64,000 bases of DNA, from the IMG/VR virus record IMGVR_UViG_3300031867_000024, positions 1 to 64,000 of that record; one strand, 5' to 3'. Shown here one piece after another: positions 27,667 through 27,937 of this stretch. Both the position numbers and the translations under genes were made by a program. How positions within the stretch are numbered: position 1 is the stretch's first letter; the number at the start of each line of letters is the position of its first letter. This DNA is from a virus. Taxonomy: Duplodnaviria; Caudoviricetes. The notes beneath the pieces were generated by a model. It was given only the letters and a program-made list of their open reading frames with translations. It searched no databases and was not told where the DNA came from.

Positions 27667-27796
27667 GTTTGACGAATGGGCTTACTATCGCTTACAATGC
27701 GATATGGACGACCTACCCTTTGTTCGGCTGTGTCCACTCCCCATTCGTTTCGTCCAGGTCTCATCAGAAACAATTTTATAGTCTCCCTGGCTGACT
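27667..27796 (-). ncRNA. hammerhead ribozyme (type I, 1-bp stem II with pseudoknot, branched stem III)
   Basis: GUUU CUGAUGA G[ACCUGGA]C GAAA CGAAUGGG...CCCAUUCG UC AAAC; loop CCUGG can pair with CCAGG in the upstream hairpin loop (27786-27790); cleavage 27671/27670. Confidence 0.8.
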
Positions 27797-27845
27797 TATT
27801 TCCTTGAGGGCACAGAACCTGTGTTCCATGCCCTCTGTAGGAGTC

Positions 27846-27909
27846 CGACCACTCTGCATTTCTAGAGGCTTGTGACTCTCATCGTTTTTCTCGATGGCTG
27901 CATTAGTCG
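27846..27909 (-). ncRNA. twister ribozyme (type P1)
   Basis: CGAC U^AA UGC AGC [CAUCG/CGAUG] AGAG UCACAAGC CUCU AGAAAU GCA GAGUG GUCG: P1-P4 and both pseudoknots present; cleavage 27905/27904. Confidence 0.9.
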
Positions 27910-27922
27910 TTTTCATATACTC

Positions 27923-27937
27923 CACACTATTACTAAT
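27923..27937 (-). promoter_or_regulatory. early-region 15-bp motif copy directly upstream of the twister
   Basis: Plus-strand CACACTATTACTAAT. Confidence 0.55.

Follow-up and report, generated by a model that had tools for sequence, protein, structure and literature searches.

Predicted twister and hammerhead ribozymes back to back in an early-gene leader of a crAss-like phage: a probable self-processing 5′ leader

Tandem and mixed-class self-cleaving ribozymes are already known in phages, and clusters of them have been on record since 2011, when elements of different classes were described lying close together on the same strand within a phage operon (Perreault et al., 2011, PMC3088659; reviewed by Weinberg, Weinberg and Hammann, 2019, PMC6765202). 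These clusters bracket genes, and the clustered ribozymes have been proposed to cut long phage transcripts into gene-length mRNAs (PMC3088659; PMC6765202). A related arrangement is found in the archaeal viruses HF1 and HF2, where a hammerhead lies 13 nt before the start codon of a helicase gene, the first ORF of the major early transcript, and where the mapped 5′ end of that transcript coincides with the hammerhead site (PMC3088659; PMC6765202). The role of self-cleaving ribozymes in bacteria and their phages is still largely unknown (PMC6765202).

The window considered in this article is a stretch of 64,000 nucleotides at the start of an IMG/VR virus record of 97,791 bp (96% completeness). 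It carries a predicted twister and a predicted hammerhead ribozyme on the minus strand, within one leftward early gene block, and in their shared strand, mixed classes and close spacing the two resemble the phage clusters. They differ from these in that the pair encloses only a 48-nt linker with a 13-bp hairpin, where the described clusters bracket genes, and in that it sits in one 5′ leader, just past a promoter-like motif. [quoted passage not shown] Unusual here are the back-to-back placement without an intervening gene, its confinement to one leader, and the presence of an insert-bearing RAGATH-1 variant. The 380-nt spacer between two small early genes of this rumen phage is probably a self-processing 5′ leader that is cut twice; self-cleavage would take place in vivo, with consequences for RNA stability and translation. 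The parts of the locus are as follows, in the direction of transcription.

28030..28326, minus strand: upstream small ORF of 92-98 aa, of no family, from the ORF list; stop codon UAG at 28032-28030
27955..28032, minus strand: long irregular hairpin followed by UUUUU; minimum free energy (MFE) -45.3 kcal/mol, z = -8.8
27923..27937, minus strand: promoter-like 15-nt motif ATTAGTAATAGTGTG, which recurs on the same strand
27846..27909, minus strand: type-P1 twister ribozyme, from an Rfam twister-P1 (RF03160) match and an alignment with three IMG/VR twisters
27806..27835, minus strand: 13-bp hairpin with an ACAG loop, between the ribozymes
27667..27797, minus strand: RAGATH-1-type type I hammerhead ribozyme, from an RF03152 match, folds and the relative L187
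27650..27670, minus strand: 21-nt A-rich mRNA leader after the hammerhead cut, from the sequence
27419..27649, minus strand: downstream 76-aa ORF with no assigned function; ATG at 27649

Both ribozymes thus lie between the promoter-like motif and the ATG at 27649, the whole 5′ leader being a double-ribozyme cassette, and the motif, the two ribozymes of different classes and the start codon all fall within 290 nt.

The GC content of the window (46.9%), its giant ORFs of 3382, 3340 and 1504 codons, the large terminase (30533-32794), the portal (32855-35392) and a crAss001_48-family protein encoded in the genome together indicate a crAss-like phage. The genes before position 29.5 kb or so run leftward on the minus strand, and the ribozyme locus is close to where this block begins, at 2.6 kb from the terminase gene. 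The whole stretch is contained in one sequencing run only, a bovine gut metagenome. No other Rfam family scores above its cut-off anywhere in the genome, and no tRNA genes were found in it. The locus had no blastn match among 50,697 GenBank phages, locus-specific patterns were not found in the JGI metagenome contigs or IMG/VR, and none of the ten neighbouring ORFs matched a PHROG family. Elsewhere in the window, a 241-aa minus-strand ORF at 1831-2556 carries a Pfam RNA_ligase domain (PF09414, 56 bits) and has the dUTPase and ThyX genes as neighbours; it may encode a ligase acting on either DNA or RNA. A plus-strand ORF of 384 aa at 22420-23574 matches the PHROG integrase family phrog_1 (E = 5.5e-22); lysogeny is believed to be absent from most crAss-like phages. 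In run X2, from another bovine gut sample, a DNA contig passes straight from 26953 to 27329, omitting 375 nt (26954-27328) with a 107-aa ORF (27314-26991); this looks like a gene cassette gained or lost.

The twister aligns end to end with the Rfam twister-P1 model and can be drawn with helices P1 to P4 and both of its pseudoknots, the conserved core nucleotides being present; by the model definition a type-P1 twister comprises P1, P2 and P4, P3 being optional. Both pseudoknots involve the P4 loop, pseudoknot 1 being formed by CAC (27874-27872) with GUG (27852-27850) and pseudoknot 2 by GC (27869-27868) with GC (27898-27897), and the cut is predicted between U27905 and A27904, at a U/AA cleavage site (here and below a slash marks the cut). 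The element therefore shares with the RF03160 type its helices, core, both pseudoknots and cleavage site, and differs from it by a score below the cut-off: 57.5 bits against an Rfam gathering score of 67.2, at E-values of 3.4e-12 (local search) and 9.8e-14 (genome search). Twisters on three IMG/VR contigs (L184, 1760-1818; L185, 9105-9164; L186, 3085-3143) have a core identical to that of the window in otherwise unrelated sequence and score 52-60 bits. In the four-sequence alignment of these with the window, 98.8% of cells are paired, both pseudoknots are paired throughout (100%), P2 and P4 are always formed, and covariation is seen at three pairs in P1 and two in P3. In these three unrelated phage contigs the twister core stands alone, 10-60 nt before an ORF, and in L184 the 3′ strand of P1 includes a GGAGG just before the ATG.

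Pseudoknot 1 is CAC/GUG in the window and CCC/GGG in the Rfam consensus. Among 74 distinct viral twisters, CAC/GUG is the commonest form of this pseudoknot; the middle pair is A-U in 47, C-G in 13, U-A in 10 and G-C in three, so that it is Watson-Crick in 73 of the 74 and mispaired once, and an A-U middle pair is penalised by the Rfam twister-P1 model. Since A-U is the commonest middle pair among these twisters and the relatives score only 52-60 bits, it is the model that falls short here, and the low score does not point to a defective RNA. A phage twister subtype is thus under-scored by RF03160 and so missed by standard annotation. In a 92% identical relative from run X4, the four changes listed within the twister fall in the P3 loop, a linker and both sides of the cut-adjacent P1 pair and avoid the conserved core, which argues for selection on the twister.

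The hammerhead was recovered as a RAGATH-1 (RF03152) match on the minus strand (27797..27721) at 58.1 bits, above the gathering cut-off of 56.3. Its elements, again on the minus strand, are listed below.

27796-27780, minus strand: 5′ hairpin
27790-27786 with 27758-27754, minus strand: 5-bp pseudoknot, CCAGG with CCUGG
27767-27761 and 27751-27748, minus strand: core, CUGAUGA and GAAA
27748-27740 with 27680-27672, minus strand: stem III, 9 bp, beginning with A27748-U27672 (A15.1-U16.1)
27681..27739, minus strand: branched two-hairpin insert in stem III, about 57 nt, from the MFE fold
27673-27671, minus strand: cleavage triplet GUC
27670-27667, minus strand: AAAC, paired with GUUU in a stem I of 4 bp only

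The pseudoknot joins the loop of the 5′ hairpin to that of a 1-bp stem II. It is 100% paired across 14 sequences, the window among them, with three covarying pairs, and the observed covariation score was reached by none of 500 shuffles. The 3′ strand proposed by the Rfam alignment, GCC/GAACA, was rejected, as it leaves an A15.1.C16.1 mispair and no real stem III; hammerheads mispaired at A15.1-U16.1 were likewise rejected by Perreault et al. (2011; PMC3088659). The 9-bp stem III with GUC/AAAC is instead the stem of the unconstrained MFE fold, and in constrained folds it is 18 kcal/mol better than the Rfam 3′ strand (-31.1 against -13.0 kcal/mol). In the relative L187 the 9-bp stem III, the GUC and the AAAC are unchanged, whereas the G of Rfam's GCC is mutated. 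The cut is accordingly predicted between C27671 and A27670. The model places the 3′ strand wrongly because of the insert of about 57 nt in stem III, where its own stem III hairpin is about 18 nt; none of the 13 other RAGATH-1 examples examined has such an insert, all 13 having a short hairpin in its place.

The locus therefore shares with RAGATH-1 the 5′ hairpin, the pseudoknot to the loop of a 1-bp stem II, the core, the type I topology and a distance of 20-40 nt to the ATG, and differs by its 9-bp stem III closing the insert and its 4-bp stem I. The insert is a variant feature and not a requirement of the hammerhead core. The placement is general to the type, as all 13 of the other hammerheads examined have an ATG 20-40 nt past the cut with an A-rich leader between. 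In each of the four bovine or gut runs, many short contigs share with the hammerhead only its conserved 5′ domain of 50 nt (27738-27804), diverging beyond it, and their number indicates that this hammerhead type is abundant in rumen viromes.

Upstream of the cassette, the long hairpin at 28032-27955 directly follows the small ORF, for which gene calling on an independent Logan assembly also gave a gene, of 92 aa, and which had no homologue besides itself among 5.8 billion proteins. In the X4 relative this hairpin shows compensatory double changes at 28013/27973, 27999/27984 and 27998/27985, together with one change from U.G to C-G; the three double changes argue that it is a selected RNA structure, and it may serve as a terminator-like element or 3′-end stabiliser of the upstream message. 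In L187 its place is taken by a canonical terminator. On the far side of the small ORF, an X4 contig from an RNA library covers 28333-28579 with five differences; no convincing gene was called in this stretch, which may be a transcribed non-coding region. Two further repeats at the locus were set aside. A perfect 12-nt inverted repeat (28033-28022/27848-27837) was not counted, such repeats numbering two genome-wide against a mean of 2.4 in shuffled sequence; its arms lie on either side of the long hairpin, the motif and the twister, with an overlap of three nucleotides into twister P1, and their pairing dominates the MFE of the read-through RNA. An 11-nt direct repeat, CAGGGAG(A/G)CUA, occurs at about chance expectation.

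The motif ATTAGTAATAGTGTG may act as a promoter. Exact copies of its 12-nt core, AGTAATAGTGTG, occur at 27934, 26289 and 25884, and a copy with one mismatch at 23867; all are intergenic and on the minus strand. The other three copies (26289, 25884 and 23867) lie 23-38 nt upstream of the ATG of an early ORF, and only at the locus described here does this interval hold a 270-nt ribozyme cassette. In L187 the motif, TGTAATAGTGTG, stands directly after a canonical terminator, which supports the promoter reading. Against it, the early transcripts of the phage phi14:2 showed no common upstream motif (bioRxiv 10.1101/2020.03.07.982082). The 13-bp hairpin between the ribozymes includes two G.U pairs, which form in the minus-strand RNA alone.

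The description of the locus given in the initial annotation, which had been made without database searches, is in large part borne out by these results. It had named a type-P1 twister with all helices and both pseudoknots, cutting at 27905/27904, and the RF03160 match (E = 3.4e-12), the covariation in P1 and P3 and the predicted cut agree with this; its type I hammerhead with a CUGAUGA/GAAA/GUC core, cutting at 27671/27670, is matched by the RAGATH-1 score and by the stem III of the MFE fold, the constrained folds and the conservation in L187. In the Rfam search that it had proposed, the hammerhead came out above the cut-off and the twister below it, though with a very small E-value. The 13-bp hairpin was found again at 27835-27806, the upstream motif does recur on the same strand, and both the length of 234 nt that it gave for the fragment between the cuts and the 21 nt from the second cut to the ATG are correct.

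Evidence on conservation comes mainly from one relative. The downstream 76-aa protein has a single homologue among 5.8 billion proteins, 88% identical and encoded on the Logan contig L187, and no relatives of the ORF were found in IMG/VR. Identity between L187 and the window is distributed as follows.

Hammerhead with insert: 97.7% (129/132)
Downstream ORF: 87.4%
Leader: 70.6%
Motif-to-hammerhead stretch: 48%, no similarity

The hammerhead core of L187 differs in one residue only, having A for U at N7, a variable position of the CUGANGA consensus, and the stem III insert is conserved except for one substitution and one 1-nt indel; such strong conservation of the insert suggests a function beyond simple cleavage. 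L187 has neither the twister nor the 13-bp hairpin, nor any other Rfam ribozyme at E up to 1, and carries a different, 14-bp hairpin further upstream, the order being gene, terminator, motif, hairpin, hammerhead and gene. Its upstream gene is an unrelated 89-codon ORF. Relative to L187, everything from the upstream gene to the 13-bp hairpin has been swapped wholesale, and the promoter motif alone is shared.

Across wider collections the pairing was not encountered again. A search for a twister followed by a RAGATH-1 hammerhead at a gap of 30-60 nt gave no matches in IMG/VR, the JGI metagenome contigs or the GTDB genomes; a looser pattern, a twister followed by any hammerhead, gave one match in Vibrio coding DNA that lacks twister features and was taken as chance. 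When the 600 nt around each of 84 viral twisters were scanned with a regular expression for hammerhead cores, only three convincing cases emerged, each at a distance above 300 nt. Of 50 relatives by terminase (TerL), sharing 41-58% identity, one carries a RAGATH-1 hammerhead and none a twister. The expectation in the initial annotation that the pair would recur in related phages is thus not borne out: the lack of the twister in L187, and of the tandem in three collections, shows that the pair is not a conserved unit, and the lone hammerhead in L187 and lone twisters elsewhere indicate that each ribozyme is an independent leader module. On sequence comparison, the hammerhead appears to be a conserved, gene-linked element that travels with the downstream gene, and the twister a separately acquired, mobile module in a swappable upstream segment.

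Alternatively, one of the ribozymes, most likely the twister, could be a recent passenger or inactive, and the pair an accident of module shuffling in a hypervariable early region, with no combined function. The wholesale replacement of the upstream segment and the sporadic occurrence of both ribozyme classes among the TerL relatives speak for this, as does the MFE fold of the read-through RNA, in which twister P4 pairs with upstream sequence. Against it, the core and pseudoknot positions of the twister are all intact, and the X4 relative has accepted its four twister changes outside the conserved core; an accidental pairing is accordingly considered rather unlikely.

The self-processing leader is favoured because the ribozymes are credible, the layout is shared with RAGATH-1, and L187 keeps the hammerhead and gene as a unit, and the position of the motif 23-38 nt before three other early ORFs also counts for it. 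Transcription would begin at the promoter-like motif or continue into the leader from the upstream gene. The hammerhead cut would give the downstream message a 5′-OH and a short, unstructured, A-rich leader of 21 nt; the 5′-OH end 21 nt before the ATG that the initial annotation had foreseen follows if the ribozymes are active. The twister cut would fall about 10-18 nt after the presumed start site. In read-through RNA it would detach the upstream message, which would then end just past its stabilising hairpin with a 2′,3′-cyclic phosphate; alternatively, it would detach a short triphosphate-bearing leader. Both structured ribozyme bodies would be shed in the 234-nt middle piece, leaving the flanking RNAs clean and scar-free; the piece itself would most likely be a by-product. 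Should transcription begin mostly at the motif, the twister would take off no more than a few nucleotides, and the hammerhead would be enough by itself, as in L187. A self-processing leader fits the general proposal for phage ribozyme clusters.

The middle piece (27904-27671) consists of 59 nt of twister, the 48-nt linker with its hairpin and 127 nt of hammerhead, and there is no credible ORF between the two ribozymes. Because the twister cut falls at the 5′ edge of that ribozyme and the hammerhead cut at the 3′ edge of the other, both bodies stay in the excised piece. Both classes leave a 5′-OH and a 2′,3′-cyclic phosphate, ends that are compatible with RtcB. In the engineered Tornado system, ribozymes cut themselves away from the insert, the new termini form a stem, and the twister-flanked insert is ligated by RtcB. 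The window shares with Tornado the ribozyme cuts on both sides and the ends that they leave, and differs in that the ribozymes are themselves the insert and the termini are unpaired. Tornado, a circular-RNA expression system, is mentioned in PMC11263348.

On the strength of this likeness, the initial annotation had suggested that the phage releases a defined 27904-27671 RNA that host RtcB may circularise. Release of that RNA stands if both ribozymes are active; circularisation is unsupported by the geometry, the termini and the prospect of re-cutting. In detail, host RtcB would have to join the 5′-OH of A27904 to the cyclic phosphate of C27671, to give, as in Tornado, a stable circle serving as a regulatory or decoy RNA. 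Beyond the matching end chemistry, Bacteroides thetaiotaomicron, a plausible type of host, encodes RtcB, and the phage has the RNA_ligase-domain ORF at 1831-2556, though for 3′-OH/5′-phosphate ends; this family joins such ends, and end healing would have to come first here. RtcB itself is not encoded by the phage. The first and last 15 nt of the piece have a summed pair probability of 0.015, so its termini are not juxtaposed, and the circular fold, at -74.8 kcal/mol against -79.6 for the linear one, is no more stable. Both ribozymes would remain in the product, unlike in Tornado, and the pair is not conserved. Sealing would place C27671 directly before A27904, the junction reading ...UUCGUC/AAUGCAGCC..., and would restore the scissile bond in an otherwise complete twister. 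Twister P1 is dispensable for activity and the L184 twister has a C at the -1 position, so the circle should re-open. Circular or spliced products of clustered phage hammerheads were sought by Perreault et al. (2011; PMC3088659) and none were found. At the locus itself, an RNA-library contig (92% identity, depth 2) crosses 27811-28048 uncut, contigs being unable to show ends, and no joint is seen among the assembled contigs of one low-coverage RNA run, in which rare junctions would not be visible; these contigs count neither way for cleavage or circles. On the other grounds given, a circle is highly improbable, and the locus is no evidence for natural phage circular RNAs.

A use for the same piece as a linear RNA has more to be said for it. 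The 234-nt RNA might be a functional, stable small RNA, for example a decoy or protein-binding RNA acting through the stem III insert or the 13-bp hairpin, protected by its 5′-OH and 2′,3′-cyclic phosphate ends and its dense structure. It folds tightly (MFE -79.6 kcal/mol, z = -4.6); the stem III insert, missing from 13 other RAGATH-1 hammerheads, is nearly invariant between the window and L187; a twister cut just past the presumed start site would serve little purpose for a piece that is thrown away; and early intergenic non-coding RNAs are abundant in phi14:2 (bioRxiv 10.1101/2020.03.07.982082). However, L187 lacks the twister and the hairpin, which leaves the 5′ end and about half of the RNA without conservation, and besides the ribozyme bodies the piece offers only about 48 nt of linker, so that a dedicated linear RNA is thought unlikely. 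It is more doubtful still that the RNA, with its 5′-OH and 2′,3′-cyclic phosphate, is made deliberately so that the stem III insert or the hairpin binds a host or phage factor or senses a signal gating the hammerhead, a transient circle in cleavage-ligation equilibrium being possible. The window has a twister where L187 does without one, and the insert is well conserved, which together leave a low probability for the functional-RNA reading.

Other ribozyme neighbours were seen in phage contigs in the course of the survey. On L012 (12761-12933, minus strand) a type III hammerhead stands 41 nt past a RAGATH-1 hammerhead, and the interval holds no gene; given the topology of the two types, the cuts of this pair should fall on the inner edges and free a ribozyme-free piece of about 50 nt, a geometry opposite to that of the window. 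L017 (9820-10203, plus strand) has two RAGATH-1 copies 231 nt apart, and on L016 (6475-6952, minus strand) a pistol ribozyme lies about 350 nt upstream of a RAGATH-1 hammerhead. On L013, a 99.9-kb phage contig, a RAGATH-1 hammerhead has a group I intron match (1313-1716, plus strand; 41.5 bits, below the cut-off, E = 2.5e-7) about 550 nt downstream.

For the annotation of phage genomes, the locus exposes two gaps: the Rfam twister-P1 cut-off misses a common phage twister subtype, and an insert in stem III causes the RAGATH-1 model to place the cleavage site wrongly. For the biology of these elements, the window and L187 form a natural allele pair, with two ribozymes and one, respectively, in front of the same gene, and this pair would allow a clean test, in a crAss-like phage, of the effect of each cut on mRNA stability and translation.
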